Below are positions 3,640-53,663 of a stretch of DNA of 64,000 bases, one piece after another. Positions within the stretch are counted from its first letter, which is position 1; the number at the start of each line of letters is the position of its first letter. The translations under genes were made by a program, and so were the position numbers. The notes under the pieces are model-generated. The model ran no database searches, was not told the DNA's origin, and worked only from the letters and a program-made list of their open reading frames with translations. This stretch comes from Escherichia coli (GTDB lineage Bacteria > Pseudomonadota > Gammaproteobacteria > Enterobacterales > Enterobacteriaceae). Where the stretch lies: NCBI RefSeq assembly GCF_036507355.1, contig NZ_AP027877.1, one strand, 5' to 3'.

Positions 3640-3790
3640 CTAACGGTGTTCTCGTGACAGCTCTTTGACTAGGCTTTCTAAGGCCATTCTGATAGCCCTG
3701 ACTTCCTGAAAAGCCATGGCTAAAATTTGTGCGGCTAAAAGGGATAACCGATGGTAAAGTAAGTTATCCCTGTCGAGATACTGAAAAGCG

Positions 3791-5368: not shown

Positions 5369-5677
5369 AAGAACCTCAAGGGTTGGCTGTTTTATTTTAT
5401 TGTTTTCGGCATTAAGCCCAATTTCTTGAGCGTTACGATAAAGCTAGCATGGAAACGATAGGTGCAAGCAAGTTAAGGGTTGCATCGCGCATGTCAATCT
5501 AGGCTATACCCTAACTTGATGTCAGGCAGGGCCGCGCCGCTTCGTCAGAATAGAGTCTGCTTTCCCATTTTTTGACACATGCCCGCGAAGGTTATAGATT
5601 TCAGCCTGACAGAAATGGGCTTTGAGGCACAACGGAACAGAAAGTGCACTTAAGCCGCCTTCAACCAAGGAGACATC
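5369..5677. promoter_or_regulatory. putative res (resolution) site and divergent promoter region between chemoreceptor gene and tnpR
   Basis: Intergenic position typical of res in Tn21/Tn1721-type elements; inverted repeats TGTCAGGC / GCCTGACA near 5520 and 5605. Subsites not mapped. Confidence 0.4.
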
Positions 5678-6238: not shown

Positions 6239-6241
6239 CAC

Positions 6242-9208: not shown

Positions 9209-9241
9209 CGTACGATTTTTTCCGAATTCTGCGGGCTCCCC
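9204..9241. repeat. right 38-bp terminal inverted repeat of the transposon
   Basis: CTTAGCGTACGATTTTTTCCGAATTCTGCGGGCTCCCC; reverse complement matches the Tn1721-type IR. Confidence 0.85.
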
Positions 9242-9246
9242 AAACA
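9242..9246. repeat. 5-bp target-site duplication AAACA (right copy)
   Basis: Same pentamer as 3597-3601, directly abutting the right IR. Confidence 0.8.
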
Positions 9247-14848: not shown

Positions 14849-15060
14849 TTTCATTGACAGCCACATCATGATGACCGTGGCTGTTAGTTTTTGAGTATAG
14901 TTATTCTTATTTCCCTTCTTTTAGAGCTGGCTTGTTAAATGCCAGCTTGCAGATTCATCGTTCCATCACCAGTACTATATTCAAGGGAAAATTGCTATTT
15001 TTCTTGGTGATGCTGCCAACTTACTGATTTAGTGTATGATGGTGTTTTTGAGGTGCTCCA

Positions 15061-15336
15061 GTGGCTTCTGTTTCTATCAGCTGTCCCTCCTGTTCAGCTA
15101 CTGACGGGGTGGTGCGTAACGGCAAAAGCACCGCCGGACATCAGCGCTATCTCTGCTCTCACTGCCGTAAAACATGGCAACTGCAGTTCACTTACACCGC
15201 TTCTCAACCCGGTACGCACCAGAAAATCATTGATATGGCCATGAATGGCGTTGGATGCCGGGCAACAGCCCGCATTATGGGCGTTGGCCTCAACACGATT
15301 TTACGTCACTTAAAAAACTCAGGCCGCAGTCGGTAA
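15061..15336 (+). CDS. insA: IS1 InsA (91 aa)
   Basis: [43 protein letters not shown]... zinc-finger/HTH InsA. Confidence 0.95.
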
Positions 15337-15758
15337 CCTCGCGCATACAGCCGGGCAGTGACGTCATCGTCTGCGCGGAAATGGACGAACAGTGGGGCTA
15401 TGTCGGGGCTAAATCGCGCCAGCGCTGGCTGTTTTACGCGTATGACAGGCTCCGGAAGACGGTTGTTGCGCACGTATTCGGTGAACGCACGATGGCGACG
15501 CTGGGGCGTCTTATGAGCCTGCTGTCACCCTTTGACGTGGTGATATGGATGACGGATGGCTGGCCGCTGTATGAATCCCGCCTGAAGGGAAAGCTGCACG
15601 TAATCAGCAAGCGATATACGCAGCGAATTGAGCGGCATAACCTGAATCTGAGGCAGCACCTGGCACGGCTGGGACGGAAGTCGCTGTCGTTCTCAAAATC
15701 GGTGGAGCTGCATGACAAAGTCATCGGGCATTATCTGAACATAAAACACTATCAATAA
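15255..15758 (+). CDS. insB: IS1 InsB reading frame (167 aa; the transposase InsAB' is made by -1 frameshift at the A-run near 15310)
   Basis: Canonical InsB sequence; TTAAAAAAC slippery run in the insA/insB overlap. Confidence 0.9.
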
Positions 15759-15773
15759 GTTGGAGTCATTACC

Positions 15774-18720: not shown

Positions 18721-18775
18721 GGTGATGCTGCCAACTTACTGATTTAGTGTATGATGGTGTTTTTGAGGTGCTCCA

Positions 18776-19051
18776 GTGGCTTCTGTTTCTATCAGCTGTC
18801 CCTCCTGTTCAGCTACTGACGGGGTGGTGCGTAACGGCAAAAGCACCGCCGGACATCAGCGCTATCTCTGCTCTCACTGCCGTAAAACATGGCAACTGCA
18901 GTTCACTTACACCGCTTCTCAACCCGGTACGCACCAGAAAATCATTGATATGGTCATGAATGGCGTTGGATGCCGGGCAACAGCCCGCATTATGGGCGTT
19001 GGCCTCAACACGATTTTACGTCACTTAAAAAACTCAGGCCGCAGTCGGTAA
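18776..19051 (+). CDS. insA: IS1 InsA (91 aa)
   Basis: Identical to copy-1 InsA except one residue (MVMNG vs MAMNG). Confidence 0.95.
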
Positions 19052-19473
19052 CCTCGCGCATACAGCCGGGCAGTGACGTCATCGTCTGCGCGGAAATGGA
19101 CGAACAGTGGGGCTATGTCGGGGCTAAATCGCGCCAGCGCTGGCTGTTTTACGCGTATGACAGGCTCCGGAAGACGGTTGTTGCGCACGTATTCGGTGAA
19201 CGCACGATGGCGACGCTGGGGCATCTTATGAGCCTGCTGTCACCCTTTGACGTGGTGATATGGATGACGGATGGCTGGCCGCTGTATGAATCCCGCCTGA
19301 AGGGAAAGCTGCACGTAATCAGCAAGCGATATACGCAGCGAATTGAGCGGCATAACCTGAATCTGAGGCAGCACCTGGCACGGCTGGGACGGAAGTCGCT
19401 GTCGTTCTCAAAATCGGTGGAGCTGCATGACAAAGTCATCGGGCATTATCTGAACATAAAACACTATCAATAA
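18970..19473 (+). CDS. insB: IS1 InsB reading frame (167 aa)
   Basis: Identical to copy-1 InsB except one residue (LGHLMS vs LGRLMS). Confidence 0.9.
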
Positions 19474-19488
19474 GTTGGAGTCATTACC

Positions 19489-30890: not shown

Positions 30891-32048
30891 ATGCACGTTA
30901 CAGCCAAGCCCTCCAGTTTTCAATGTAATCTCAAATGTGATTACTGTTTTTACCTTGAAAAAGAGTCGCAGTTTACTCATGAAAAATGGATGGATGACAG
31001 CACTCTGAAAGAGTTCATCAAACAATATATCGCAGCGTCTGGCAATCAGGTCTATTTTACCTGGCAAGGCGGTGAACCCACTCTGGCTGGCCTGGATTTT
31101 TTCCGTAAAGTTATTCACTATCAACAACGCTATGCAGGCCAAAAACGTATTTTTAATGCATTACAAACGAATGGCATTTTATTGAATAATGAATGGTGTG
31201 CCTTTCTCAAAGAACATGAGTTTCTGGTTGGTATCTCGATCGATGGACCCCAGGAGCTACATGACCGTTACAGACGCAGTAATTCAGGTAATGGTACTTT
31301 TGCAAAAGTGATAGCAGCCATCGAGCGTCTGAAATCATATCAAGTAGAGTTTAATACGTTAACCGTCATTAATAACGTTAATGTCCATTACCCTCTTGAG
31401 GTTTATCATTTTTTAAAATCTATCGGCAGTAAACATATGCAATTTATCGAATTGCTAGAAACCGGGACGCCGAATATTGATTTCAGTGGTCATAGTGAGA
31501 ACACATTCCGTATCATTGATTTTTCTGTGCCTCCCACGGCTTATGGCAATTTTATGTCAACCATTTTTATGCAATGGGTTAAAAACGATGTGGGTGAAGT
31601 TTTCATCCGTCAGTTTGAAAGCTTTGTCAGCCGTTTTTTGGGGAATGGGCATACCAGTTGTATTTTCCAGGAGTCCTGCAAGGATAATCTGGTTGTTGAA
31701 AGTAATGGAGACATTTACGAATGCGACCATTTTGTCTATCCACAGTACAAAATTGGAAACATTAATAAATCTGAACTCAAAACGATGAACAGTGTACAAC
31801 TGACAGCGCAAAAAAAACGGATTTCAGCGAAATGTCTGAAATGTGCATATAAACCTATCTGCAATGGCGGTTGTCCTAAGCATCGTATTACTAAAGTAAA
31901 CAATGAGACTGTTTCTTATTTTTGCGAAGGTTATAAAATCCTTTTTTCAACCATGGTACCTTATATGAACGCCATGGTAGAGTTAGCTAAGAACAGAGTA
32001 CCGCTTTACCACATTATGGATGTTGCAAAACAAATGGAGAATAATTAA
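30891..32048 (+). CDS. ydeM: radical-SAM anaerobic sulfatase-maturating enzyme homologue YdeM
   Basis: CxxxCxxC radical-SAM motif (CNLKCDYC) near the N-terminus, C-terminal Cys cluster; ATG at 30891 preferred over the upstream TTG. Confidence 0.85.
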
Positions 32049-32338
32049 TAACACGCCCTCTTAGCTCCAGTCTTAGCCTCCGTCTTATGACCTTAACAAA
32101 GCACCCGACATAAATTCCTGTCGGGTTTGTCGTCATCATCATCTTCCCTTGCGAAAATCCTGGCATACGTGGTATGCGTCAGGGCATTAGCAATACCCTT
32201 GATTATCAATAGCATAACCATAACCACTGAAAATTAAAAATTTCTATATATTTCATATTGTTAAATGATACTTAAATAAATTTCATCAGTAAATCATTGC
32301 CATAGATAATCATTGGATGGCACAATCAATTTTCGCTA

Positions 32339-34024
32339 ATGATAACCATTCCCATTACGTTTTGTATGTTGATAGCAAAGTATCTCTGTCTGCTGAAGCC
32401 CTTTTGGCTGCGTAAGAATAATAAAACTTCAGTGTTGTTAATCATTATTATCCTCGCCATGATCCTTGGCGTGGTTAAAATTCAGGTCTGGTTAAACGAC
32501 TGGAATAATGATTTTTTCAATGCGCTAAGCCAGAAAGAAACCGATAAGCTTTGGCAGCTTGTCCTTTGGTTCCCTGCCCTGCTGGGGATCTTTGTATTAA
32601 TATCCGTAAACAAAACATGGTTAATTAAACTGCTGACTATTCGCTGGCGCGAATGGTTAACAGATTACTACCTTAATCGCTGGTTTGCAGATAAAAACTA
32701 CTACTTCACGCAGATCTACGGCGAGCATAAAAATACAGATAACCCTGACCAACGTATCGCTGAAGACATTCTCTTACTGATCAGCAAAACGCTCAGTCTT
32801 TCATTTGGCTTCATCCAGTCACTTAGCATGCTGATCACCTTTACCGTTATTCTTTGGCAAAGCGCGGGTACGCTCTCATTCACTGTTGGTGGAACAGAAT
32901 GGAATATCCAGGGGTATATGGTCTATACCGTCGTGCTCATTGTGATCGGTGGAACTTTATTTACCCATAAGGTGGGTAAACGTATTCGTCCGCTTAATGT
33001 GGAAAAACAACGTAGCGAAGCGACATTTCGAACTAATCTTGTGCAGCATAATAAACAGGCAGAACTGATTGCGCTAAGCAATGCTGAGTCTCTACAACGC
33101 CAGGAGTTGAGCGACAATTTTCACACCATTAAAGAGAACTGGCATCGTTTAATGAATCGTCAGCGGTGGCTTGATTACTGGCAGAATATTTATTCGCGTT
33201 CGCTTAGCGTTCTTCCGTACTTTCTGTTATTGCCGCAGTTTATTAGCGGACAGATCAATCTGGGCGGACTTATGAAATCGCGCCAGGCATTTATGCTGGT
33301 ATCGAACAATTTAAGCTGGTTTATTTATAAATATGATGAAATTGCTGAACTGGCTGCGGTTATCGATCGCTTGTATGAGTTCCATCAACTCACCGAACAG
33401 CGCCCTACGAATAAGCCTAAAAATTGCCAACATGCGGTACAAGTGGCTGACGCGAGTATTCGTACCCCTGATAATAAGATCATATTAGAGAACCTGAACT
33501 TTCATGTTCCGCCAGGCAAATGGCTATTACTGAAAGGTTACTCTGGTGCGGGAAAAACCACACTGCTTAAAACATTATCCCACTGCTGGCCGTGGTTTAA
33601 AGGTGATATTTCTTCTCCTGCCGACAGTTGGTATGTGTCACAAACACCGTTAATCAAAACCGGCTTACTGAAAGAGATTATTTGTAAAGCACTTCCTCTG
33701 CCCGTAGACGATAAATCGTTGAGCGAAATACTGCATCAGGTTGGTCTGGGGAAATTGGCTGCGCGTATTCATGACCACGATCGCTGGGGAGATATTCTTT
33801 CCAGCGGCGAAAAACAACGTATCGCCCTGGCACGATTAATTTTACGACGTCCGAAATGGATATTTCTTGACGAAACTACCTCTCATCTTGAGGAACAAGA
33901 GGCTATCCGCTTACTGCGTTTAGTGCGTGAAAAACTACCCACAAGCGGCGTCATTATGGTTACACATCAACCCGGTGTCTGGAACCTGGCCGATGATATT
34001 TGTGACATTAGCGCGGTTTTATAA
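32339..34024 (+). CDS. yddA: fused ABC transporter permease/ATP-binding protein YddA (561 aa)
   Basis: N-terminal TM domain, C-terminal ABC ATPase (Walker A GYSGAGKTT, signature LSSGEKQR). Confidence 0.9.
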   Translation: MITIPITFCMLIAKYLCLLKPFWLRKNNKTSVLLIIIILAMILGVVKIQVWLNDWNNDFFNALSQKETDKLWQLVLWFPALLGIFVLISVNKTWLIKLLTIRWREWLTDYYLNRWFADKNYYFTQIYGEHKNTDNPDQRIAEDILLLISKTLSLSFGFIQSLSMLITFTVILWQSAGTLSFTVGGTEWNIQGYMVYTVVLIVIGGTLFTHKVGKRIRPLNVEKQRSEATFRTNLVQHNKQAELIALSNAESLQRQELSDNFHTIKENWHRLMNRQRWLDYWQNIYSRSLSVLPYFLLLPQFISGQINLGGLMKSRQAFMLVSNNLSWFIYKYDEIAELAAVIDRLYEFHQLTEQRPTNKPKNCQHAVQVADASIRTPDNKIILENLNFHVPPGKWLLLKGYSGAGKTTLLKTLSHCWPWFKGDISSPADSWYVSQTPLIKTGLLKEIICKALPLPVDDKSLSEILHQVGLGKLAARIHDHDRWGDILSSGEKQRIALARLILRRPKWIFLDETTSHLEEQEAIRLLRLVREKLPTSGVIMVTHQPGVWNLADDICDISAVL

Positions 34025-34061
34025 AAACAATAAAAGCCCTGCTGTACGGAGATATAAATAA

Positions 34062-36434
34062 ATGAAGCGAGTTCTTATTCCTGGCGTCATTTTATGTGGC
34101 GCTGATGTGGCGCAGGCCGTCGATGACAAAAACATGTACATGCATTTTTTTGAAGAGATGACGGTCTATGCTCCTGTCCCTGTACCCGTAAACGGCAACA
34201 CGCATTACACCAGTGAAAGCATCGAGCGTTTACCGACCGGGAATGGCAATATCAGCGATCTGCTGAGAACCAACCCTGCGGTACGCATGGATTCAACGCA
34301 AAGTACCTCGTTGAACCAGGGAGATATTCGCCCGGAGAAAATCTCTATTCACGGTGCGTCGCCCTACCAGAATGCCTATTTGATTGATGGTATTAGTGCC
34401 ACTAATAACCTGAACCCAGCGAATGAGTCCGATGCCAGTAGTGCAACCAATATTAGCGGGATGTCACAGGGGTATTATCTTGATGTCAGCTTACTGGACA
34501 ATGTGACGCTTTATGACAGTTTTGTGCCGGTTGAATTCGGTCGCTTCAATGGCGGGGTAATTGATGCAAAGATCAAACGCTTCAACGCTGATGATAGCAG
34601 CGTGAAACTGGGTTATCGCACTACGCGTTCGGACTGGTTAACATCGCATATCGATGAGAATAACAAGAGCGCATTTAATCAAGGTTCTTCAGGAAGTACT
34701 TATTACTCTCCAGATTTTAAAAAGAACTTTTATACCTTGTCGTTTAATCAGGAACTCGCTGATAACTTTGGCGTTACCGCCGGTTTATCGCGCCGCCAGT
34801 CTGATATCACCCGTGCGGATTATGTTTCGAATGACGGCATTGTCGCCGGTCGGGCACAGTATAAAAACGTTATCGATACTGCATTGAGCAAATTTACCTG
34901 GTTTGCCAGCGACCGCTTTACCCACGATTTAACCTTAAAATATACCGGCTCCAGCCGTGATTATAATACCAGCACCTTCCCGCAGTCTGATCGCGAAATG
35001 GGTAATAAATCCTATGGTCTGGCATGGGATATGGATACGCAGCTCGCATGGGCCAAACTACGTACCACCGTTGGTTGGGATCATATTAGTGATTATACCC
35101 GTCACGATCATGACATCTGGTACACCGAACTTTCATGTACATATGGTGATATTACAGGGCGTTGCACCCGTGGCGGATTAGGACACATTTCCCAGGCTGT
35201 AGATAATTACACCTTCAAAACACGCCTGGACTGGCAAAAATTCGCCGTGGGTAATGTTTCGCATCAACCCTACTTCGGCGCGGAATACATCTATTCCGAT
35301 GCATGGACTGAACGCCATAACCAGTCTGAATCCTATGTGATTAATGCTGCCGGAAAGAAAACTAACCATACCATTTACCATAAAGGTAAAGGCAGCCTGG
35401 GAATTGACAACTACACACTGTATATGGCGGATCGCATTAGCTGGCGTAATGTGTCATTAATGCCCGGCGTGCGGTATGACTATGACAACTATCTGTCAAA
35501 CCACAATATCTCCCCGCGCTTTATGACGGAATGGGATATTTTTGCTGATCAAACCTCAATGATTACCGCAGGTTATAACCGTTACTATGGTGGGAATATT
35601 CTTGATATGGGATTACGTGATATCCGCAATAGCTGGACGGAATCGGTATCAGGCAATAAAACCCTGACGCGTTATCAGGATTTGAAAACGCCTTATAACG
35701 ATGAACTGGCAATGGGATTGCAGCAAAAAATCGGTAAGAACGTTATTGCGCGCGCAAACTATGTTTACCGTGAAGCGCATGATCAAATCAGCAAAAGCAG
35801 TCGTACCGACAGCGCGACTAAAACCACCATTACTGAATATAACAACGATGGCAAAACCAAAACGCATTCGTTCAACCTCAGTTTTGAGCTGGCCGAACCC
35901 CTGCATATCCGCCAGGTAGATATTAACCCACAAATTGTCTTTAGCTATATCAAGAGCAAGGGCAACTTGTCGTTAAACAATGGTTATGAGGAGAGCAATA
36001 CCGGTGATAATCAGGTGGTTTATAACGGTAATCTTGTCTCTTACGATAGCGTTCCAGTGGCAGATTTTAATAACCCATTAAAGATCTCCTTAAACATGGA
36101 TTTCACGCATCAACCGAGCGGGTTGGTGTGGGCGAATACGCTGGCCTGGCAAGAAGCGCGTAAAGCTCGCATTATCCTTGGTAAGACAAATGCGCAATAC
36201 ATCAGCGAATATTCAGATTACAAGCAGTATGTTGACGAAAAACTGGATAGCAGCCTGACCTGGGACACCCGCTTGTCCTGGACGCCACAATTTCTGAAAC
36301 AACAAAACCTGACGATCAGTGCCGATATTCTCAATGTACTGGATAGCAAAACCGCTGTTGATACAACGAATACCGGTGTGGCGACCTACGCCAGTGGCCG
36401 TACTTTCTGGCTTGATGTCAGCATGAAATTTTAA
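34062..36434 (+). CDS. yddB: TonB-dependent-receptor-like outer-membrane protein YddB (790 aa)
   Basis: 790-aa beta-rich ORF with a C-terminal aromatic residue (..WLDVSMKF). Confidence 0.85.
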   Translation: MKRVLIPGVILCGADVAQAVDDKNMYMHFFEEMTVYAPVPVPVNGNTHYTSESIERLPTGNGNISDLLRTNPAVRMDSTQSTSLNQGDIRPEKISIHGASPYQNAYLIDGISATNNLNPANESDASSATNISGMSQGYYLDVSLLDNVTLYDSFVPVEFGRFNGGVIDAKIKRFNADDSSVKLGYRTTRSDWLTSHIDENNKSAFNQGSSGSTYYSPDFKKNFYTLSFNQELADNFGVTAGLSRRQSDITRADYVSNDGIVAGRAQYKNVIDTALSKFTWFASDRFTHDLTLKYTGSSRDYNTSTFPQSDREMGNKSYGLAWDMDTQLAWAKLRTTVGWDHISDYTRHDHDIWYTELSCTYGDITGRCTRGGLGHISQAVDNYTFKTRLDWQKFAVGNVSHQPYFGAEYIYSDAWTERHNQSESYVINAAGKKTNHTIYHKGKGSLGIDNYTLYMADRISWRNVSLMPGVRYDYDNYLSNHNISPRFMTEWDIFADQTSMITAGYNRYYGGNILDMGLRDIRNSWTESVSGNKTLTRYQDLKTPYNDELAMGLQQKIGKNVIARANYVYREAHDQISKSSRTDSATKTTITEYNNDGKTKTHSFNLSFELAEPLHIRQVDINPQIVFSYIKSKGNLSLNNGYEESNTGDNQVVYNGNLVSYDSVPVADFNNPLKISLNMDFTHQPSGLVWANTLAWQEARKARIILGKTNAQYISEYSDYKQYVDEKLDSSLTWDTRLSWTPQFLKQQNLTISADILNVLDSKTAVDTTNTGVATYASGRTFWLDVSMKF

Positions 36435-36478
36435 TAGTTCGGATTTTACTTAACCGGGTAAATTCGGCCGGTTTTCGC

Positions 36479-39274
36479 ATGGAGATAATTATGAGAAACC
36501 TCTGTTTCTTACTGACGTTAGTGGCAACTCTGTTGCTCCCCGGGCGGCTGATTGCCGCCGCCTTACCGCAGGATGAAAAGTTAATTACCGGGCAACTGGA
36601 CAATGGCTTGCGATATATGATTTATCCGCATGCTCATCCAAAGGATCAGGTAAATTTATGGCTGCAAATTCATACCGGTTCATTGCAGGAAGAAGACAAT
36701 GAGCGCGGCGTGGCTCATTTTGTAGAACATATGATGTTTAACGGCACAAAAACATGGCCGGGTAATAAAGTCATCGAAACATTTGAGTCAATGGGCCTGC
36801 GTTTTGGTCACGATGTTAATGCCTATACCAGCTATGACGAAACGGTGTATCAGGTGAGTTTGCCGACTACGCAGAAACAAAATCTGCAACAAGTGATGGC
36901 AATCTTCAGTGAATGGAGTAATGCCGCAACCTTTGAAAAACTCGAAGTAGACGCTGAACGCGGCGTAATTACTGAGGAATGGCGTGCCCATCAGGATGCG
37001 AAATGGCGCACCTCTCAGGCGCGCCGCCCTTTCCTGCTGGCAAATACCCGTAATTTAGACCGTGAACCTATCGGCCTGATGGATACTGTCGCCACGGTCA
37101 CACCGGCACAATTGCGCCAATTTTATCAACGCTGGTATCAACCAAATAATATGACCTTTATCGTGGTTGGCGATATCGACAGTAAAGAAGCGCTGGCGCT
37201 GATAAAGGATAATTTAAGTAAGCTTCCAGCTAACAAAGCAGCTGAAAATCGCGTCTGGCCGACAAAAGCCGAAAATCACCTGCGCTTTAATATCATTAAT
37301 GATAAAGAAAACCGGGTGAACGGCATCGCACTCTATTATCGCCTGCCAATGGTACAAGTGAACGATGAGCAAAGCTTTATCGAACAAGCTGAATGGAGCA
37401 TGTTAGTTCAGCTGTTCAATCAACGTCTGCAGGAACGCATACAGTCGGGCGAGTTGAAGACTATTTCTGGCGGCACTGCGCGCAGCGTTAAAATTGCACC
37501 CGATTATCAGTCGCTGTTTTTCCGTGTAAATGCACGAGACGATAATATGCAGGATGCTGCGAATGCATTAATGGCAGAGTTGGCAGCCATTGATCAGCAT
37601 GGTTTTTCTGCTGAAGAACTCGATGATGTCAAATCTACCCGCCTCACCTGGCTGAAAAATGCGGTTGATCAGCAAGCTGAACGTGATTTACGTATGCTGA
37701 CCAGTCGCCTGGCATCAAGCTCATTAAATAATACGCCGTTCTTGTCGCCGGAAGAGACATATCAACTTTCGAAACGTCTGTGGCAGCAAATTACCGTGCA
37801 AAGTCTGGCGGAAAAATGGCAGCAGTTAAGAAAGAACCAGGACGCATTTTGGGAGCAAATGGTAAACAATGAGCTTGCCGCCAAAAAAGCATTGTCTCCT
37901 GCGGCTATCCTGGCGCTGGAAAAAGAGTACGCCAACAAAAAGCTGGCGGCTTACATCTTCCCAGGCAGAAATTTATCGTTAACAGTAGACGCTGACCCAC
38001 AGGCGGAAATTAGCAGCAAAGAAACGCTGGCTGAGAATCTGACATCATTAACACTTTCCAATGGTGCCAAGGTTATTCTGGCAAAATCCGCGGGTGAAGA
38101 GCAAAAGCTACAAATTATTGCCGTATCGAATAAAGGCGATTTAAGTTTCCCTGCGCAGCAAAAATCACTTATCGCGCTGGCAAATAAAGCAGTTAGCGGA
38201 AGCGGCGTTGGCGAACTCTCCTCTTCCAGCCTGAAACGCTGGAGTGCGGAAAATTCGGTAACCATGAGCAGTAAAGTCAGTGGCATGAATACGTTGCTCT
38301 CCGTTAGCGCGCGGACTAATAACCCTGAACCTGGTTTTCAGTTGATTAACCAGCGAATCACCCACAGCACGATTAACGACAATATTTGGGCATCGCTACA
38401 AAATGCTCAAATTCAGGCGTTGAAAACGCTCGACCAGCGTCCAGCGGAGAAATTCGCCCAGCAGATGTATGAGACGCGCTATGCTGATGACCGCACGAAA
38501 TTACTGCAAGAAAATCAGATTGCACAGTTTACTGCCGCAGATGCGCTGGCTGCCGATCGCCAGTTGTTTTCATCTCCAGCGGATATCACGTTTGTCATTG
38601 TCGGTAATGTCGCAGAAGACAAACTCGTGGCGTTAATTACGCGTTACTTAGGCTCAATCAAACACTCTGATTCGCCATTAGCCGCAGGTAAACCATTAAC
38701 TCGCGCGACGGACAACGCATCGGTTACTGTAAAAGAACAAAATGAACCTGTGGCACAGGTTTCACAGTGGAAGCGTTATGATTCCCGGACACCTGTTAAT
38801 CTGGCGACGCGTATGGCGCTCGATGCTTTTAACGTCGCACTGGCAAAAGATCTACGCGTTAATATTCGTGAACAGGCATCTGGGGCATACAGCGTTTCTT
38901 CTCGCCTCTCGGTTGATCCTCAGGCTAAAGATATCAGTCATTTGCTGGCTTTTACTTGTCAACCAGAACGACATGATGAACTGTTAACGTTAGCGAATGA
39001 AGTGATGGTTAAGCGTCTGGCTAAAGGGATCAGTGAGCAAGAACTGAATGAATACCAGCAAAACGTTCAGCGCAGCCTCGATATCCAACAGCGTAGCGTT
39101 CAACAATTAGCGAACACTATTGTAAATAGTCTTATTCAATATGACGATCCTGCAGCATGGACTGAGCAGGAGCAATTGCTGAAACAAATGACGGTAGAGA
39201 ATGTTAACACTGCCGTTAAACAATATCTTTCTCATCCGGTAAATACTTATACCGGAGTATTATTGCCAAAATAA
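36479..39274 (+). CDS. pqqL: periplasmic M16-family zinc peptidase PqqL (931 aa)
   Basis: Signal peptide, inverzincin HxxEH motif (HFVEH); length matches PqqL. Confidence 0.9.
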   Translation: MEIIMRNLCFLLTLVATLLLPGRLIAAALPQDEKLITGQLDNGLRYMIYPHAHPKDQVNLWLQIHTGSLQEEDNERGVAHFVEHMMFNGTKTWPGNKVIETFESMGLRFGHDVNAYTSYDETVYQVSLPTTQKQNLQQVMAIFSEWSNAATFEKLEVDAERGVITEEWRAHQDAKWRTSQARRPFLLANTRNLDREPIGLMDTVATVTPAQLRQFYQRWYQPNNMTFIVVGDIDSKEALALIKDNLSKLPANKAAENRVWPTKAENHLRFNIINDKENRVNGIALYYRLPMVQVNDEQSFIEQAEWSMLVQLFNQRLQERIQSGELKTISGGTARSVKIAPDYQSLFFRVNARDDNMQDAANALMAELAAIDQHGFSAEELDDVKSTRLTWLKNAVDQQAERDLRMLTSRLASSSLNNTPFLSPEETYQLSKRLWQQITVQSLAEKWQQLRKNQDAFWEQMVNNELAAKKALSPAAILALEKEYANKKLAAYIFPGRNLSLTVDADPQAEISSKETLAENLTSLTLSNGAKVILAKSAGEEQKLQIIAVSNKGDLSFPAQQKSLIALANKAVSGSGVGELSSSSLKRWSAENSVTMSSKVSGMNTLLSVSARTNNPEPGFQLINQRITHSTINDNIWASLQNAQIQALKTLDQRPAEKFAQQMYETRYADDRTKLLQENQIAQFTAADALAADRQLFSSPADITFVIVGNVAEDKLVALITRYLGSIKHSDSPLAAGKPLTRATDNASVTVKEQNEPVAQVSQWKRYDSRTPVNLATRMALDAFNVALAKDLRVNIREQASGAYSVSSRLSVDPQAKDISHLLAFTCQPERHDELLTLANEVMVKRLAKGISEQELNEYQQNVQRSLDIQQRSVQQLANTIVNSLIQYDDPAAWTEQEQLLKQMTVENVNTAVKQYLSHPVNTYTGVLLPK

Positions 39275-39280
39275 TAACAG

Positions 39281-39310
39281 CCCCGTCAACACATCGTTGG
39301 CGGGGATTTT
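39281..39310 (+). terminator. rho-independent terminator after pqqL
   Basis: CCCCGTCAAC-acatc-GTTGGCGGGG (10-bp stem with one G-U) followed by ATTTTA. Confidence 0.6.
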
Positions 39311-39536
39311 AGCAATATTCGCTATTTTTATGTAATAATTTTATAAATGCGTTCAAAATAATAACCAAGTACTAATAGTGATATTTTAAGGTCTGATTTT
39401 TACGTGATAATTCAGGAGGCGCAGAAAGCGCATAAAAATAACAACATAAAACACCTTGCCACCACCCAAGAATTCTCTATTGCATTGTTTTTTAATGGAA
39501 AAATATTATTCCAACAACATCTCACGATAAATAACA

Positions 39537-39556
39537 TTAGGATTTTGTTATTTAAA
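39537..39556 (+). promoter_or_regulatory. GAD box (GadE/RcsB site) in the gadB promoter
   Basis: TTAGGATTTTGTTATTTAAA, ~80 bp upstream of the gadB start. Confidence 0.65.
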
Positions 39557-39635
39557 CCAGAGTCCTTTGCACTTGCTTACTTTATCGATAAATCCTACTT
39601 TTTTAATGCGATCCAATCATTTTAAGGAGTTTAAA

Positions 39636-41036
39636 ATGGATAAGAAGCAAGTAACGGATTTAAGGTCGGAACTACTCGATTCACGTTTTGGTGCGAAGTC
39701 TATTTCCACTATCGCAGAATCAAAACGTTTTCCGCTGCACGAAATGCGCGACGATGTCGCATTTCAGATTATCAATGATGAATTATATCTTGATGGCAAC
39801 GCTCGTCAGAACTTGGCCACTTTCTGCCAGACCTGGGACGACGAAAACGTCCACAAGTTGATGGATTTATCCATTAACAAAAACTGGATCGACAAAGAAG
39901 AATATCCGCAATCTGCAGCCATCGACCTGCGTTGCGTAAATATGGTTGCCGATCTGTGGCATGCGCCTGCGCCGAAAAATGGTCAGGCCGTTGGCACCAA
40001 CACCATTGGTTCTTCCGAGGCCTGTATGCTCGGCGGGATGGCGATGAAATGGCGTTGGCGCAAGCGTATGGAAGCTGCAGGCAAACCAACGAATAAACCA
40101 AACCTGGTGTGCGGTCCGGTGCAAATCTGCTGGCATAAATTCGCCCGCTACTGGGATGTGGAGCTGCGTGAGATCCCTATGCGCTCCGGTCAGTTGTTTA
40201 TGGATCCGAAACGCATGATTGAAGCCTGCGACGAAAATACCATCGGCGTGGTGCCGACTTTCGGCGTGACCTACACCGGTAACTATGAGTTCCCGCAACC
40301 GCTGCACGATGCGCTGGATAAATTCCAGGCCGACACCGGTATCGACATCGACATGCACATCGACGCCGCCAGCGGTGGCTTCCTGGCACCGTTCGTCGCC
40401 CCGGATATCGTCTGGGACTTCCGCCTGCCGCGTGTGAAATCGATCAGTGCTTCAGGCCATAAATTCGGTCTGGCTCCGCTGGGCTGCGGCTGGGTTATCT
40501 GGCGTGATGAAGAAGCGCTGCCGCAGGAACTGGTGTTCAACGTTGACTACCTCGGTGGTCAGATTGGTACTTTCGCCATCAACTTCTCCCGCCCGGCGGG
40601 TCAGGTAATTGCACAGTACTATGAATTCCTGCGCCTCGGTCGTGAAGGCTATACCAAAGTACAGAACGCCTCTTACCAGGTTGCCGCTTATCTGGCGGAT
40701 GAAATCGCCAAACTGGGGCCGTATGAGTTCATCTGTACCGGTCGCCCGGACGAAGGCATTCCGGCGGTTTGCTTCAAACTCAAAGATGGTGAAGATCCGG
40801 GATACACCCTGTATGACCTCTCTGAACGTCTGCGTCTGCGCGGCTGGCAGGTTCCGGCCTTCACTCTCGGCGGTGAAGCCACCGACATCGTGGTGATGCG
40901 CATTATGTGTCGTCGCGGCTTCGAAATGGACTTTGCTGAACTGTTGCTGGAAGACTACAAAGCCTCCCTGAAATATCTCAGCGATCACCCGAAACTGCAG
41001 GGTATTGCCCAACAGAACAGCTTTAAACATACCTGA
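39636..41036 (+). CDS. gadB: glutamate decarboxylase beta (466 aa)
   Basis: [37 protein letters not shown]...; PLP-lysine region [10 protein letters not shown]; followed by gadC. Confidence 0.95.
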
Positions 41037-41191
41037 TAACGTTTAACGGTAACGGTGTCCCGAAACGAACCCGTTTCGGGACAATTTCCAAAGTCTGTTC
41101 ACTGGCATTAGCAACGGAAAATATTGTTCTGAATACGCTTCAGAACAAAACAGGTGCGGTTCCGACAGGAATACCGTTTTAGGGGGATAAT

Positions 41192-42727
41192 ATGGCTACA
41201 TCAGTACAGACAGGTAAAGCTAAGCAGCTCACATTACTCGGCTTTTTTGCCATAACGGCATCGATGGTAATGGCTGTTTATGAATACCCTACCTTCGCAA
41301 CATCGGGCTTTTCATTAGTCTTCTTCCTGCTATTAGGCGGGATTTTATGGTTTATTCCCGTGGGACTTTGTGCTGCGGAAATGGCCACCGTCGACGGCTG
41401 GGAAGAAGGTGGTGTCTTCACCTGGGTATCAAATACTCTGGGACCGAGATGGGGATTTGCAGCGATCTCATTTGGCTATCTGCAAATCGCCATTGGTTTT
41501 ATTCCGATGCTCTATTTCGTGTTAGGGGCACTCTCCTACATCCTGAAATGGCCAGCGCTGAATGAAGACCCCATTACCAAAACTATTGCAGCACTCATCA
41601 TTCTTTGGGCGCTGGCATTAACGCAGTTTGGTGGCACGAAATACACGGCGCGAATTGCTAAAGTTGGCTTCTTCGCCGGTATCCTGTTACCTGCATTTAT
41701 TTTGATCGCATTAGCGGCTATTTATCTGCACTCCGGTGCCCCCGTTGCTATCGAAATGGATTCGAAGACCTTCTTCCCTGACTTCTCTAAAGTGGGCACC
41801 CTGGTTGTATTTGTTGCCTTCATTTTGAGTTATATGGGCGTAGAAGCTTCCGCAACTCACGTCAATGAAATGAGCAACCCCGGGCGCGACTATCCACTGG
41901 CTATGTTACTGCTGATGGTGGCGGCAATCTGCTTAAGCTCTGTTGGCGGTTTGTCTATTGCGATGGTCATTCCGGGTAATGAAATCAACCTCTCCGCAGG
42001 GGTAATGCAAACCTTTACCGTTCTGATGTCCCATGTGGCACCGGAAATTGAGTGGACGGTTCGCGTGATCTCCGCACTGCTGTTGCTGGGTGTTCTGGCG
42101 GAAATCGCCTCCTGGATTGTTGGTCCTTCTCGCGGGATGTATGTCACAGCGCAGAAAAACCTGCTGCCAGCGGCATTCGCTAAAATGAACAAAAATGGCG
42201 TACCGGTAACGCTGGTCATTTCGCAGCTGGTGATTACTTCTATCGCGTTGATCATCCTCACCAATACCGGTGGCGGTAACAACATGTCCTTCCTGATCGC
42301 ACTGGCGCTGACGGTGGTGATTTATCTGTGTGCTTATTTCATGCTGTTTATTGGCTACATTGTGTTGGTTCTTAAACATCCTGACTTAAAACGCACATTT
42401 AATATCCCTGGTGGTAAAGGGGTGAAACTGGTCGTGGCTATTGTCGGTCTGCTGACTTCAATTATGGCGTTTATTGTTTCCTTCCTGCCGCCGGATAATA
42501 TCCAGGGTGACTCTACCGATATGTATGTTGAATTACTGGTCGTTAGTTTCCTGGTGGTACTTGCCCTGCCCTTTATTCTCTATGCTGTTCATGATCGTAA
42601 AGGCAAAGCGAATACCGGCGTCACTCTGGAGCCAATCAACAGTAAGAACGCACCAAAAGGTCACTTCTTCCTGCACCCGCGTGCACGTTCACCACACTAT
42701 ATTGTGATGAATGACAAGAAACACTAA
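41192..42727 (+). CDS. gadC: glutamate/GABA antiporter GadC (511 aa)
   Basis: 511-aa APC-family transporter immediately downstream of gadB. Confidence 0.95.
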
Positions 42728-42752
42728 CTATGTCTGAATGGTTATAAGATAA

Positions 42753-42781
42753 GGGAGCGATAATTCATCGCTCCCTTTTTC
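42753..42781 (+). terminator. rho-independent terminator of gadBC
   Basis: GGGAGCGA-taattca-TCGCTCCC followed by TTTTT. Confidence 0.75.
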
Positions 42782-42857
42782 GTGCTTGCTGTCGTATTGA
42801 CTTAATCGGGATAAGTACGAGAATGAGCGCACATCTGTTTACCGGAAACCAGCACAT

Positions 42858-44177
42858 ATGGATATCTGCTCCCGAAACAAGAAATTAACGATTAGAAGAC
42901 CAGCGATACTGGTTGCACTGGCACTTTTACTGTGTAGTTGTAAAAGCACGCCTCCAGAGTCCATGGTGACACCACCAGCGGGTTCAAAGCCACCAGCCAC
43001 GACGCAACAATCGTCACAACCGATGCGTGGCATCTGGCTGGCCACGGTGTCTCGCCTCGACTGGCCACCGGTTTCCTCGGTTAACATTAGTAACCCCACC
43101 AGCCGGGCCCGTGTACAACAACAGGCGATGATCGACAAACTGGATCATCTGCAACGTCTCGGCATAAACACGGTCTTTTTCCAGGTCAAGCCGGACGGTA
43201 CCGCCCTGTGGCCATCGAAAATTTTGCCGTGGTCCGATCTTATGACCGGTAAGATTGGTGAAAATCCGGGTTACGATCCGCTGCAATTTATGCTCGACGA
43301 AGCCCACAAGCGTGGGATGAAAGTACACGCCTGGTTTAACCCCTATCGCGTATCGGTTAATACGAAGCCCGGTACTATCAGGGAACTGAATAGCACCCTG
43401 TCTCAACAACCGGCGAGCGTCTATGTGCAACACCGCGACTGGATCAGAACGTCCGGCGATCGCTTTGTCCTCGACCCGGGCATCCCTGAGGTTCAGGACT
43501 GGATCACATCAATAGTCGCAGAAGTGGTTTCCCGCTATCCGGTAGATGGCGTGCAGTTTGACGACTATTTCTATACTGAGTCACCGGGTTCACGGCTAAA
43601 TGATAACGAAACGTACCGCAAATACGGAGGCGCATTTGCGTCAAAAGCAGACTGGCGGCGCAACAATACTCAGCAGTTAATTGCAAAAGTATCGCACACC
43701 ATTAAAAGCATTAAGCCGGGAGTCGAATTTGGCGTTAGCCCGGCAGGCGTGTGGCGTAACCGATCACACGATCCGCTCGGCTCCGATACCCGAGGCGCGG
43801 CAGCCTATGACGAATCCTACGCTGACACTCGTCGATGGGTGGAACAAGGATTGCTGGATTACATTGCTCCCCAAATTTACTGGCCGTTCTCACGGAGTGC
43901 CGCGCGTTATGACGTGTTGGCAAAATGGTGGGCGGATGTCGTTAAACCGACCAGGACCCGCCTGTATATCGGTATCGCCTTCTATAAAGTGGGTGAACCT
44001 TCAAAGATAGAGCCAGACTGGATGATTAACGGCGGCGTACCGGAACTGAAAAAGCAGCTCGATCTTAACGATGCGGTACCAGAAATTAGCGGCACCATCT
44101 TGTTCCGTGAGGACTATCTGAATAAACCGCAGACTCAACAAGCGGTCAGCTATCTGCAAAGTCGTTGGGGCAGTTGA
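42858..44177 (+). CDS. yddW: lipoprotein YddW (439 aa), glycoside-hydrolase-like
   Basis: Lipobox (LLLCSC) and TIM-barrel-like domain; length matches YddW. Confidence 0.85.
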   Translation: MDICSRNKKLTIRRPAILVALALLLCSCKSTPPESMVTPPAGSKPPATTQQSSQPMRGIWLATVSRLDWPPVSSVNISNPTSRARVQQQAMIDKLDHLQRLGINTVFFQVKPDGTALWPSKILPWSDLMTGKIGENPGYDPLQFMLDEAHKRGMKVHAWFNPYRVSVNTKPGTIRELNSTLSQQPASVYVQHRDWIRTSGDRFVLDPGIPEVQDWITSIVAEVVSRYPVDGVQFDDYFYTESPGSRLNDNETYRKYGGAFASKADWRRNNTQQLIAKVSHTIKSIKPGVEFGVSPAGVWRNRSHDPLGSDTRGAAAYDESYADTRRWVEQGLLDYIAPQIYWPFSRSAARYDVLAKWWADVVKPTRTRLYIGIAFYKVGEPSKIEPDWMINGGVPELKKQLDLNDAVPEISGTILFREDYLNKPQTQQAVSYLQSRWGS

Positions 44178-44194
44178 ACTCCCATTTTTACTTT

Positions 44195-44229
44195 GTAACA
44201 AGCCAGTGCTTTACCCACTGGCTTGTTAC
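44195..44229 (+). terminator. hairpin after yddW (long perfect stem, no U-tract)
   Basis: GTAACAAGCCAGTG-ctttaccc-ACTGGCTTGTTAC. Confidence 0.4.
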
Positions 44230-44553
44230 CCTCTTGAAATATCCCACTAGTAATCATGCTTACATAAGTCAAATTAACCACGCAATTAACGACACTTAGT
44301 TAAACAGCCATAATCCCCCTAATAAAAATGTATGAATATGAAAAACCATACGATATTCGCAGTCACCGAAAAATAATTACGATGGGCTATACTCTTCTGA
44401 AGAACAGTAGCGTAGATTGAAACTGTCCTAAGTCGCTTATTTCTTTTTAGTATATCTTCATATTTCAGGAGAATATGGTGCAGTTAGTCGATCTCGCACG
44501 TTGCGTTTCGTTTTGATTCCGTCTGATTTCCCAGCCTTATAAGGGTGTGAATT

Positions 44554-45936
44554 ATGGAGATGTATTTTAAAAGAATGAAAGATGAGTGGACCGGACTTGT
44601 CGAACAGGCAGATCCGCCCATTCGAGCTAAAGCCGCGGAAATTGCCGTTGCGCATGCTCATTATCTGAGTATTGAGTTTTATCGAATTGTCCGCATCGAC
44701 CCGCATGCCGAAGAATTCTTGAGTAATGAACAAGTTGAGCGGCAGTTGAAAAGTGCGATGGAACGCTGGATTATTAACGTGCTTTCTGCCCAGGTTGACG
44801 ATGTCGAAAGGCTAATACAAATCCAGCATACCGTCGCGGAAGTGCATGCCCGCATAGGAATTCCGGTAGAAATTGTCGAGATGGGGTTTCGGGTGCTGAA
44901 AAAGATCCTCTATCCGGTAATCTTCTCTTCGGATTATTCTGCCGCAGAAAAACTTCAGGTCTACCATTTCTCGATTAACAGTATTGATATCGCTATGGAA
45001 GTGATGACCCGCGCGTTTACCTTTAGTGACAGTAGTGCCTCAAAAGAAGATGAAAACTATCGTATCTTCTCGTTACTGGAAAACGCCGAAGAAGAAAAAG
45101 AACGGCAAATAGCCTCAATACTTTCATGGGAAATAGATATCATCTATAAAATCCTGCTGGATTCTGATTTAGGCAGTAGTTTGCCTTTAAGCCAGGCTGA
45201 TTTTGGCCTGTGGTTTAACCATAAAGGTCGACATTATTTCAGCGGCATTGCTGAAGTGGGCCATATCTCTCGTCTGATTCAGGATTTCGACGGTATTTTC
45301 AATCAAACCATGCGTAACACCAGGAATTTGAATAACAGAAGTCTGCGGGTGAAATTTCTATTACAGATAAGAAATACTGTATCGCAAATTATTACCTTGC
45401 TGCGTGAATTGTTTGAAGAAGTATCGCGCCACGAAGTCGGTATGGATGTACTGACGAAATTACTTAACCGCCGTTTCCTGCCGACTATCTTCAAACGCGA
45501 AATTGCCCATGCCAACCGGACCGGTACACCGCTGTCAGTGCTGATTATTGACGTTGATAAATTCAAAGAGATCAACGATACGTGGGGCCATAACACTGGT
45601 GATGAAATTCTGCGTAAAGTCTCTCAGGCCTTTTATGACAACGTCCGCAGTAGTGATTATGTTTTCCGCTACGGGGGCGATGAATTTATCATTGTTTTGA
45701 CTGAAGCTTCTGAAAACGAAACGTTACGTACCGCAGAACGTATTCGCAGTCGGGTGGAGAAAACCAAACTGAAAGCCGCAAACGGCGAAGATATTGCCCT
45801 CTCACTTTCCATCGGTGCCGCCATGTTTAATGGTCATCCTGACTATGAGCGCCTCATTCAAATAGCCGATGAAGCTCTGTATATCGCCAAAAGACGAGGT
45901 AGAAACCGTGTTGAACTCTGGAAAGCCAGTCTTTAG
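44554..45936 (+). CDS. dosC: globin-coupled diguanylate cyclase DosC (460 aa)
   Basis: N-terminal globin sensor, C-terminal GGDEF domain (RYGGDEF); precedes dosP. Confidence 0.9.
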   Translation: MEMYFKRMKDEWTGLVEQADPPIRAKAAEIAVAHAHYLSIEFYRIVRIDPHAEEFLSNEQVERQLKSAMERWIINVLSAQVDDVERLIQIQHTVAEVHARIGIPVEIVEMGFRVLKKILYPVIFSSDYSAAEKLQVYHFSINSIDIAMEVMTRAFTFSDSSASKEDENYRIFSLLENAEEEKERQIASILSWEIDIIYKILLDSDLGSSLPLSQADFGLWFNHKGRHYFSGIAEVGHISRLIQDFDGIFNQTMRNTRNLNNRSLRVKFLLQIRNTVSQIITLLRELFEEVSRHEVGMDVLTKLLNRRFLPTIFKREIAHANRTGTPLSVLIIDVDKFKEINDTWGHNTGDEILRKVSQAFYDNVRSSDYVFRYGGDEFIIVLTEASENETLRTAERIRSRVEKTKLKAANGEDIALSLSIGAAMFNGHPDYERLIQIADEALYIAKRRGRNRVELWKASL

Positions 45937-45960
45937 ATGCGCCAGGATGCAGAGGTAATC

Positions 45961-48360
45961 ATGAAGCTAACCGATGCGGATAATGCCGCCGATGGCATTT
46001 TTTTCCCCGCCCTTGAGCAAAATATGATGGGTGCGGTGTTAATTAACGAAAATGATGAAGTGATGTTTTTCAACCCCGCCGCAGAGAAGCTCTGGGGGTA
46101 CAAACGTGAAGAAGTCATTGGCAATAACATTGATATGCTGATTCCGCGGGATTTGCGTCCTGCGCATCCTGAATACATTCGTCACAACCGTGAAGGCGGT
46201 AAAGCGCGCGTCGAGGGGATGAGTCGGGAGCTGCAGCTGGAGAAAAAAGACGGCAGTAAAATCTGGACCCGTTTTGCGCTATCGAAAGTGAGCGACGAGG
46301 GGAAAGTTTATTACCTGGCGCTGGTACGGGATGCCAGCGTAGAAATGGCGCAAAAAGAACAGACCAGACAATTGATTATTGCCGTTGACCATCTCGACCG
46401 ACCGGTGATTGTCCTCGATCCGGAACGCCATATTGTGCAGTGCAATCGCGCATTTACCGAAATGTTTGGTTACTGCATTAGCGAAGCCAGCGGTATGCAG
46501 CCCGATACACTCCTGAACATTCCTGAATTCCCTGCCGATAACCGCATTCGTTTACAACAGTTGCTATGGAAAACCGCCCGCGATCAGGACGAATTTCTGC
46601 TGTTGACGCGCACCGGTGAAAAAATCTGGATTAAAGCCTCTATCAGCCCGGTTTATGACGTGCTCGCGCATCTGCAGAACCTGGTAATGACTTTCTCGGA
46701 TATCACCGAAGAACGGCAGATCCGCCAGCTTGAAGGCAATATTCTCGCCGCCATGTGCAGCAGCCCGCCATTTCATGAAATGGGGGAAATCATTTGTCGT
46801 AACATCGAATCTGTTCTCAACGAATCGCATGTTTCGCTGTTCGCACTGCGCAACGGGATGCCGATACACTGGGCGTCATCTTCGCACGGTGCAGAAGTTC
46901 AAAATGCGCAAAGCTGGTCAGCGACCATTCGTCAGCGTGATGGCGCGCCTGCGGGGATCCTGCAAATTAAAACCTCGTCAGGAGCAGAAACCAGCGCCTT
47001 TATCGAACGCGTGGCAGATATCAGCCAGCATATGGCCGCGCTGGCGCTGGAACAGGAAAAAAGCCGTCAGCATATTGAACAACTCATCCAATTTGATCCG
47101 ATGACCGGTCTGCCAAATCGCAATAACCTGCACAATTACCTCGATGACCTGATCGACAAAGCCGTCTCTCCGGTGGTGTATCTCATCGGTGTTGACCATA
47201 TTCAGGATGTGATTGATAGCCTTGGCTATGCGTGGGCCGATCAGGCATTGCTGGAAGTGGTCAATCGCTTTCGTGAAAAACTCAAACCGGATCAGTATCT
47301 CTGTCGTATCGAAGGTACGCAGTTTGTCCTCGTGAGCCTGGAAAACGACGTCAGTAACATTACCCAAATCGCCGATGAGCTACGGAATGTGGTCAGCAAG
47401 CCGATAATGATTGACGATAAACCCTTCCCGCTTACCTTGAGTATTGGCATCAGCTACGACGTGGGTAAAAACCGCGATTACCTGCTCTCCACTGCTCACA
47501 ATGCAATGGATTATATTCGCAAGAATGGGGGTAACGGCTGGCAGTTCTTCAGCCCGGCGATGAACGAAATGGTAAAAGAGCGTTTGGTTTTAGGCGCAGC
47601 GCTGAAAGAAGCGATTAGCAATAACCAACTGAAACTGGTTTACCAGCCGCAAATCTTCGCAGAAACGGGTGAACTCTACGGCATCGAAGCCCTTGCTCGC
47701 TGGCACGATCCCCAGCATGGTCATGTGCCCCCTTCACGGTTTATTCCTCTCGCAGAAGAGATTGGTGAAATCGAAAATATTGGGCGCTGGGTCATCGCGG
47801 AAGCTTGCCGTCAGTTAGCAGAATGGCGTAGCCAGAATATTCATATCCCGGCGTTATCCGTGAACTTGTCGGCGCTGCACTTTCGCAGTAATCAACTGCC
47901 TAATCAGGTGTCTGATGCAATGCAAGCCTGGGGTATTGACGGCCACCAGCTGACGGTGGAAATCACAGAAAGCATGATGATGGAACACGATACCGAAATC
48001 TTTAAGCGCATTCAGATCCTGCGTGATATGGGCGTGGGTTTATCGGTAGATGATTTTGGCACGGGCTTTTCCGGATTATCCCGCTTAGTCAGTCTTCCGG
48101 TAACGGAAATCAAAATTGACAAAAGTTTTGTCGATCGTTGTCTGACGGAAAAACGCATCCTTGCCTTACTTGAAGCCATTACCAGCATTGGGCAAAGCCT
48201 CAATTTAACCGTCGTGGCGGAAGGCGTCGAAACCAAAGAGCAATTTGAGATGCTACGTAAGATCCACTGTCGCGTTATTCAGGGATATTTCTTTTCCCGC
48301 CCCCTACCCGCCGAAGAAATTCCATGCTGGATGAGCAGCGTGTTACCGCTGAAAACCTGA
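45961..48360 (+). CDS. dosP: haem-PAS c-di-GMP phosphodiesterase DosP (799 aa)
   Basis: PAS domains, degenerate GGDEF, EAL domain (EALAR); start taken at MKLTDADNAADG. Confidence 0.9.
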   Translation: MKLTDADNAADGIFFPALEQNMMGAVLINENDEVMFFNPAAEKLWGYKREEVIGNNIDMLIPRDLRPAHPEYIRHNREGGKARVEGMSRELQLEKKDGSKIWTRFALSKVSDEGKVYYLALVRDASVEMAQKEQTRQLIIAVDHLDRPVIVLDPERHIVQCNRAFTEMFGYCISEASGMQPDTLLNIPEFPADNRIRLQQLLWKTARDQDEFLLLTRTGEKIWIKASISPVYDVLAHLQNLVMTFSDITEERQIRQLEGNILAAMCSSPPFHEMGEIICRNIESVLNESHVSLFALRNGMPIHWASSSHGAEVQNAQSWSATIRQRDGAPAGILQIKTSSGAETSAFIERVADISQHMAALALEQEKSRQHIEQLIQFDPMTGLPNRNNLHNYLDDLIDKAVSPVVYLIGVDHIQDVIDSLGYAWADQALLEVVNRFREKLKPDQYLCRIEGTQFVLVSLENDVSNITQIADELRNVVSKPIMIDDKPFPLTLSIGISYDVGKNRDYLLSTAHNAMDYIRKNGGNGWQFFSPAMNEMVKERLVLGAALKEAISNNQLKLVYQPQIFAETGELYGIEALARWHDPQHGHVPPSRFIPLAEEIGEIENIGRWVIAEACRQLAEWRSQNIHIPALSVNLSALHFRSNQLPNQVSDAMQAWGIDGHQLTVEITESMMMEHDTEIFKRIQILRDMGVGLSVDDFGTGFSGLSRLVSLPVTEIKIDKSFVDRCLTEKRILALLEAITSIGQSLNLTVVAEGVETKEQFEMLRKIHCRVIQGYFFSRPLPAEEIPCWMSSVLPLKT

Positions 48361-52680: not shown

Positions 52681-53663
52681 CCCAACCCGTTCTGGACATT
52701 CAACAACTGCATTTGAGTTTCCCCGGTTTTAACGGTGATGTTCACGCGCTCAACAATGTGTCCTTGCAGATTAACCGCGGTGAAATTGTCGGTCTGGTGG
52801 GAGAATCCGGCTCAGGTAAATCAGTCACCGCAATGCTGATTATGCGTCTGCTACCGACGGGCAGTTATTGCGTACATCGGGGGCAGATTTCCCTGCTGGG
52901 AGACGATGTTCTTAACGCGCGGGAAAAACAGCTTCGTCAGTGGCGCGGCGCACGAGTGGCGATGATCTTTCAGGAACCGATGACCGCCCTCAATCCGACA
53001 CGTCGAATAGGTCTTCAGATGATGGACGTGATCCGCCATCATCAACCAATAAGTCGTCGGGAAGCCAGAGCTAAAGCGATTACCCTGCTGGAAGAGATGC
53101 AAATCCCGGATGCCGTGGAAGTTATGTCGCGCTATCCGTTTGAGCTTTCAGGTGGTATGCGCCAGCGGGTAATGATTGCGCTGGCATTCTCCTGCGAGCC
53201 GCAATTGATTATTGCCGACGAACCGACTACGGCGCTGGACGTCACGGTACAGTTGCAGGTACTGCGTTTGCTTAAACATAAAGCCCGCGCCAGTGGAACT
53301 GCGGTACTGTTCATCAGCCATGATATGGCCGTGGTGTCGCAACTGTGCGATAGCGTTTACGTGATGTATGCCGGAAGCGTAATTGAAAGCGGCGTGACGG
53401 CAGACGTTATCCATCATCCCCGGCATCCGTATACCATTGGTTTGCTGCAATGCGCACCAGAACATGGAGTACCACGCCAGCCATTACCCGCCATTCCAGG
53501 GACGGTACCAAACCTCACCCATTTGCCTGACGGCTGCGCTTTTCGCGATCGTTGCTATGCGGCAGGTGCACAGTGTGAAAACGTCCCGGCGCTGACAGCG
53601 TGTGGTGACAACAACCAGCGCTGCGCCTGTTGGTATCCGCAGCAGGAGGTCATAAGTGTCTGA
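52677..53663 (+). CDS. ddpD: dipeptide ABC transporter ATPase DdpD (328 aa)
   Basis: Walker A GESGSGKS, ABC signature LSGGMRQR. Confidence 0.9.
   Translation: MTQPVLDIQQLHLSFPGFNGDVHALNNVSLQINRGEIVGLVGESGSGKSVTAMLIMRLLPTGSYCVHRGQISLLGDDVLNAREKQLRQWRGARVAMIFQEPMTALNPTRRIGLQMMDVIRHHQPISRREARAKAITLLEEMQIPDAVEVMSRYPFELSGGMRQRVMIALAFSCEPQLIIADEPTTALDVTVQLQVLRLLKHKARASGTAVLFISHDMAVVSQLCDSVYVMYAGSVIESGVTADVIHHPRHPYTIGLLQCAPEHGVPRQPLPAIPGTVPNLTHLPDGCAFRDRCYAAGAQCENVPALTACGDNNQRCACWYPQQEVISV

Follow-up and report, generated by a model that had tools for sequence, protein, structure and literature searches.

The 20-nt element TTAGGATTTTGTTATTTAAA, located at positions 39537-39556 on the plus strand of the window (by which we mean the whole 64-kb stretch of E. 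coli DNA analysed here), is very probably the GAD box of the gadBC operon and would work as its counterpart does in K-12; we put the probability of this reading at about 0.94. The assignment draws on the sequence match, the position, the neighbouring genes and the conservation of the element in surroundings that vary. The element is already known, and its arrangement upstream of gadB is the ordinary one, in the expected place.

Sequence, position and gene context of the GAD box

All 20 bases of the element equal those of the published E. coli GAD box, and exact comparison with the established site (Castanié-Cornet et al. 2010, PMC2887963; Seo et al.) gave no mismatches. The element is the single match in the 64 kb when both strands are searched and up to three mismatches are tolerated. 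The K-12 gadBC promoter (b1493-b1492) carries the same 20 bp at the same distance of 79 nt from the ATG. An earlier note on this DNA had described a canonical 20-bp GAD box at this site, about 80 bp upstream of gadB, and both statements hold, the distance being 79 nt when it is counted from the last base of the box to the start codon; counted from the first base to the A of the ATG, it is 99 nt.

The box is followed by full-length gadB, the glutamate decarboxylase gene of the gad system, and then by gadC (Table 1). The gadB start codon is the ATG at 39636-39638, and the protein has the N-terminus MDKKQV. Upstream lies pqqL (36479-39274), and the local gene order, yddA-yddB-pqqL-gadB-gadC-digH-dosC-dosP, is the same in K-12, with pqqL and gadC again as the immediate neighbours. 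Downstream of pqqL is a hairpin with a calculated energy of -18.6 kcal/mol (z = -4.9), which none of 200 shuffles matched in folding; its sequence is identical to that of K-12, and together with its U-run it probably ends pqqL transcription, as far as folding can indicate. More broadly, positions 30000-48000 are 95-99% identical to thousands of complete E. coli genomes (best 99.3%), and the window is ordinary E. coli chromosome.

Table 1. Features of the gadBC locus and its upstream region in the window
Feature	Position	Strand	Basis
Likely intrinsic terminator of pqqL (10-bp GC-rich stem, 5-nt loop, AUUUU)	39281..39310	+	Folding; putative terminator function
Match to published GadX/GadW motif, AGGTCTGATTTTTACGTGAT, ~220 bp upstream of predicted start	39389..39408	+	1 mismatch; weak evidence as a motif alone
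Hypervariable AT-rich spacer, GadX/GadW motif to GAD box	39419..39526	+	36/108 columns vary among 7 alleles
GAD box, 20-bp RcsB/GadE activator site of the gadBC promoter	39537..39556	+	Exact and unique match; K-12 identity; published site; invariance in 7 alleles
Putative -35 hexamer, TTGCTT	39573..39578	+	16 bp past the box, as published for gadA; predicted position
RcsB box, CGATAAATCCTAC, low-affinity repressing RcsB site just upstream of and overlapping the -10	~39586..39598	+	Literature and K-12 identity; predicted borders
Putative -10 hexamer, TACTTT	39597..39602	+	Predicted from box centre at -63 and -35 spacing; identical to K-12
Predicted gadBC transcription start, +/-1 nt	39609..39610	+	Box centre 39546.5 + 63 bp
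Shine-Dalgarno, AAGGAG	39624..39629	+	Read from sequence; invariant in 12 promoters
gadB, glutamate decarboxylase B, 466 aa, intact	39636..41036	+	Full-length tblastn match, 99.6% identical to K-12 GadB
gadC, glutamate:GABA antiporter, 511 aa, intact	41192..42727	+	Full-length match, 99.6% identical to K-12 GadC

Comparison with the K-12 gadB promoter was the check that the earlier note had proposed, and it gave base-for-base identity both in the box and from 39560 to the ATG. In the alignment of the whole pqqL-gadB intergenic region there are 19 substitutions, none of which falls in these two segments. Two are located directly 3' of the box, at 39558-39559, where the window has CCA and K-12 has CAC. 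The other 17 are upstream of the box, 16 of them inside the spacer at 39419-39526, and the nearest on the 5' side is a single base 19 bp from the box. The -35, the RcsB box, the -10, the 5' UTR and the Shine-Dalgarno sequence are all identical between K-12 and the window.

Published properties of the site and the core promoter

In the account of Castanié-Cornet et al. 2010 (PMC2887963), the GAD box is a consensus of 20 bp that has its centre 63 bp upstream of the transcription starts of gadA and gadBC and lies 16 bp upstream of the -35. In the same study, protection from DNase I between -50 and -76 needed RcsB and GadE together, GadE alone giving no binding, and the box was shown on K-12 gadA to be bound by an RcsB/GadE heterodimer. 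Changing a conserved G abolished both binding and GadE-dependent activation (PMC2887963); in the window, this G, which heterodimer binding requires (the M1 mutation), is present, and all G positions of the box are unchanged. The heterodimer biochemistry is that of gadA, gadB being covered through conservation of the box and through genetics (PMC2887963). The left half of the box (TTAGGA...) resembles a half-site of the canonical RcsB/RcsAB boxes; however, unlike these, the GAD box is asymmetric and requires both GadE and RcsB, low concentrations of RcsB by itself giving no binding (PMC2887963). The role named in the earlier note, that of a site for GadE/RcsB-dependent activation of gadBC, is the one that the literature assigns to the box.

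The promoter coordinates in Table 1 were derived from published distances and from identity to K-12, from which we infer the borders of the individual elements. The centre of the box (39546.5) is near -63 relative to the predicted transcription start, and the distance from the box to TTGCTT matches the published spacing. This -35 hexamer is identical to that of K-12 gadB, and its CTTGC is invariant in 12 Escherichia gadA and gadB promoters, as is the GAT.AATCCTAC of the RcsB-box region. The RcsB box has been placed immediately upstream of the -10, and in gadB it is conserved apart from its left end, where a C replaces the G (PMC2887963); the stretch at 39586-39598 is identical to K-12 gadB. 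A simple sigma-70 promoter scan did not call the gadB promoter, both hexamers being weak in relation to the consensus. Because the hexamers are weak and the promoter is activator-dependent, this miss is not evidence against the promoter, and a weak gadB core fits what is expected of a promoter that depends on an activator.

Protein binding, the transcription start and acid induction are carried over from the K-12 literature, and by homology to K-12 the following scheme may be proposed. The RcsB/GadE heterodimer would bind 39537-39556, about 63 bp upstream of the start and 16 bp before the weak -35. Binding would activate the poor core promoter, so that GadB and GadC would be made in stationary phase and under acid stress. 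The low-affinity RcsB box overlapping the -10 may lead to repression when RcsB is highly active, and the distal GadX/GadW site may give the gadBC promoter a further input.

Extent of the conserved regulatory system

The earlier note had also concluded that the regulatory architecture of the glutamate-dependent system is intact. For the gadBC locus this can be accepted, with respect to the cis elements as well as gadB and gadC: the GAD box, -35, RcsB box, -10, 5' UTR, Shine-Dalgarno sequence, GadX/GadW-motif match and full-length gadB and gadC are all K-12-like. As a statement about the whole system it goes too far, because a single cis element cannot show as much and because gadE, rcsB, gadX, gadW and gadA are outside the window. 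Searches of the 64 kb by tblastn gave no match to K-12 GadE or RcsB, matched only the AraC-family paralogue YdeO in the case of gadX and gadW, and with GadA returned only gadB. Full-length copies of ydeP, safA and ydeO are present in the window, and the literature places these three genes in an EvgAS-YdeO-GadE cascade.

It is conceivable that the box, though present, stands idle because gadE, rcsB or a regulator acting upstream of them has been lost or mutated elsewhere in the genome. The location of gadE, rcsB, gadX and gadW outside the window leaves room for such a loss, and the left part of the window shows active rearrangements involving IS1 and the Tn3 family, which means that genes do get disrupted in this genome. 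However, gadB, gadC, ydeO, safA and ydeP are all full length, the promoter is under evident purifying selection across E. coli (see below), and there is no positive sign of loss, so that we regard an idle box as quite improbable. If the box were idle, an intact cis site would say nothing of the acid-resistance phenotype. The preferred reading, that of a GAD box working as in K-12, implies that the strain probably has normal GadE/RcsB control of gadBC, provided that the regulators encoded elsewhere are intact.

Conservation of the box in E. coli and other species

Seven E. coli intergenic alleles were aligned (the window, K-12, A30, ST131, F765, O55:H7 and WEC), having been picked by similarity over the whole region and independently of the GAD box. 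Variation is found in 54 of the 370 columns, and 36 of these variable columns are concentrated in the 108 bp of 39419-39526; there are none in 39527-39556, three at 39557-39559 and none in 39560-39636. Among the seven alleles, then, the GAD box has the character of a phylogenetic footprint, invariant against a diverging background. At a larger scale, the 114-bp segment from the box to the ATG is present in 5,404 of the 5,426 complete E. coli genomes; these give 5,406 matching records, and in 5,402 of them the best match reaches an identity of 95% or more. Most often there are two mismatches (98.2%), in keeping with the two bases directly after the box at which the window differs from K-12. Judged by such sequence comparisons, purifying selection on the gadB promoter across E. 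coli is evident.

Two genomes with rearrangements at the locus may be mentioned. In E. coli AR_0085 (NZ_CP029741.1, 1500-1593), a natural deletion has fused a truncated sulfatase-family gene directly to the bases that otherwise follow immediately 3' of the GAD box, such that gadB has kept its -35, -10 and 5' UTR and the box is gone; yddA-pqqL are apparently absent from the locus. In E. coli MSI001 (NZ_CP076645.1, 874-2077), an IS5-like element of the ISKpn26 family is located between pqqL and gadB. Similarity to the window restarts there only at 39564, and the IS thus appears either to lie between the GAD box and the -35 or to have taken the place of the box.

A scan for the exact 20-mer in one genome per species (GTDB representatives, ~298 Gb) gave 11 matches, eight of them in Escherichia, namely in E. 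coli representatives, E. albertii, E. whittamii and Escherichia sp. E1V33. In all eight, the start codon of a gadA- or gadB-type gene follows downstream at an identical distance, and the flanks of the box have diverged strongly. Because an exact match was required, the scan shows conserved position and flank divergence and not an independent invariance of the box. The remaining three matches are in AT-rich or unrelated MAGs and are not accompanied by a gad gene.

Chance copies of the 20-mer evidently exist, as these last three illustrate, and one might suppose that the copy upstream of gadB is itself a chance AT-rich 20-mer in an AT-rich intergenic region, with no regulatory meaning. Yet no copy arose in 100 dinucleotide-preserving shuffles of the window, even with three mismatches allowed; the site is at exactly the K-12 position; and it does not vary, in contrast to a third of the columns in the adjacent spacer. 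The shuffles, the positional identity with K-12 and the invariance together rule the supposition out, and the probability left to it is negligible.

Assignment to gadB and comparison with gadA

The K-12 gadA promoter has the same 20-mer, with the same spacing to CTTGC (-35), to GATAAATCCTAC (RcsB box and -10), to AAGGAG and to the ATG. The rest of its upstream region barely aligns with the window, the flanks being unrelated in sequence, and upstream of the -35 the gadA and gadB promoters have no long identical block in common apart from the GAD box. A misassigned paralogue, in which the element would in fact be the gadA box, is the least credible reading of all: although the two promoters have an identical box and the GadA and GadB proteins are ~98.5% identical, pqqL is upstream, gadC is downstream, no gadX follows the gene, the N-terminus is MDKKQV and the flanks of the box match K-12 PgadB rather than PgadA, so that synteny, N-terminus and promoter flanks identify the gene as gadB, with synteny and the box flanks ruling gadA out.

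The distal GadX/GadW motif and a polymorphic spacer

At up to two mismatches, the published GadX/GadW motif has its sole match in the window at 39389-39408, a result to be weighed against the 22 of 100 shuffles that give at least one match. The stretch is identical to K-12. Work by Tramonti in 2006 reportedly put the upstream distance of the GadX/GadW site at ~110 bp in gadA and ~220 bp in gadBC, and the K-12 gadBC site is said to be centred at -220.5 in that work. The position of the match in the window, ~220 bp upstream, is presumably that of the K-12 gadBC site.

Between this motif and the GAD box is the spacer that carries 16 of the 19 differences from K-12. It is a diversity hotspot in E. 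coli, being unusually polymorphic in relation to the 18-kb surroundings, which are 95-99% identical to most genomes. Over the whole intergenic region, the best match to the window is 90-95% identical in 2,094 E. coli records and 95-99% identical in 3,296, and an identical region was found in none of the 5,426 complete E. coli genomes, the closest being 98.9% identical. Were the spacer to govern how the DNA bends or loops between the promoter and its distal activators, different alleles could adjust the output of gadBC. We consider it unlikely, though worth stating, that spacer alleles tune gadBC expression strain by strain around a fixed GAD box.

GadE-motif matches near ydeP

The published ChIP-exo GadE motif, TTARGAWWWWAAATA, was searched in the window at up to one mismatch. 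At this threshold the GAD box itself is not matched, owing to a difference in register, and the motif was for this reason set aside as evidence for the box. Near-matches are located at 25153-25167 and 24980-24994, both on the minus strand and just upstream of ydeP (ATG ~25195); two or more matches were obtained in 3 of 100 shuffles. In the first of these, TTAGGATTTTTAATA at 25153-25167, the first 10 bases are those of the GAD box, in the opposite orientation. Also upstream of ydeP, at 24931-24952, is ATCCTACACCTGTAAGAAAA, which resembles what we take to be the EvgA-binding inverted repeat of the ydeP-safA-ydeO operon.

Rearrangements elsewhere in the window

Several rearrangements are found at a distance from the gadBC locus. 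Two directly oriented IS1 copies are located at 15006-15773 and 18721-19488, each with the left end GGTGATGCTGCCAACTTACTG and a 167-aa InsB-like ORF. In comparison with other E. coli, this region is missing parts of an ECSE_1600-family autotransporter gene, hipB, the 5' two-thirds of hipA, a fimA-like gene and the start of a fimbrial chaperone gene; the HipA remnant consists of residues 299-440 only and is located at 17327-17752. A second rearrangement is a 5.64-kb block at 3601-9242 with genes for a methyl-accepting chemotaxis protein, a resolvase and a Tn3-family (TnAs1-like) transposase. The block is 100% identical to one in strain 23CRST010, where it is flanked by tam and lsrG. In the window it interrupts lsrD, of which a 247-aa ORF is left, and the insertion probably disrupts the AI-2 importer. 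Finally, ddpF (53656-54579) encodes a protein 94.8% identical to the copy of strain A30, its neighbours being 99-100% identical, which suggests a locally divergent and possibly recombined segment.

Implications

That this strain carries a gadBC promoter of the K-12 type, activator site included, is mainly of use for annotation and adds no new biology. It provides a small sanity check for the prediction of acid resistance.
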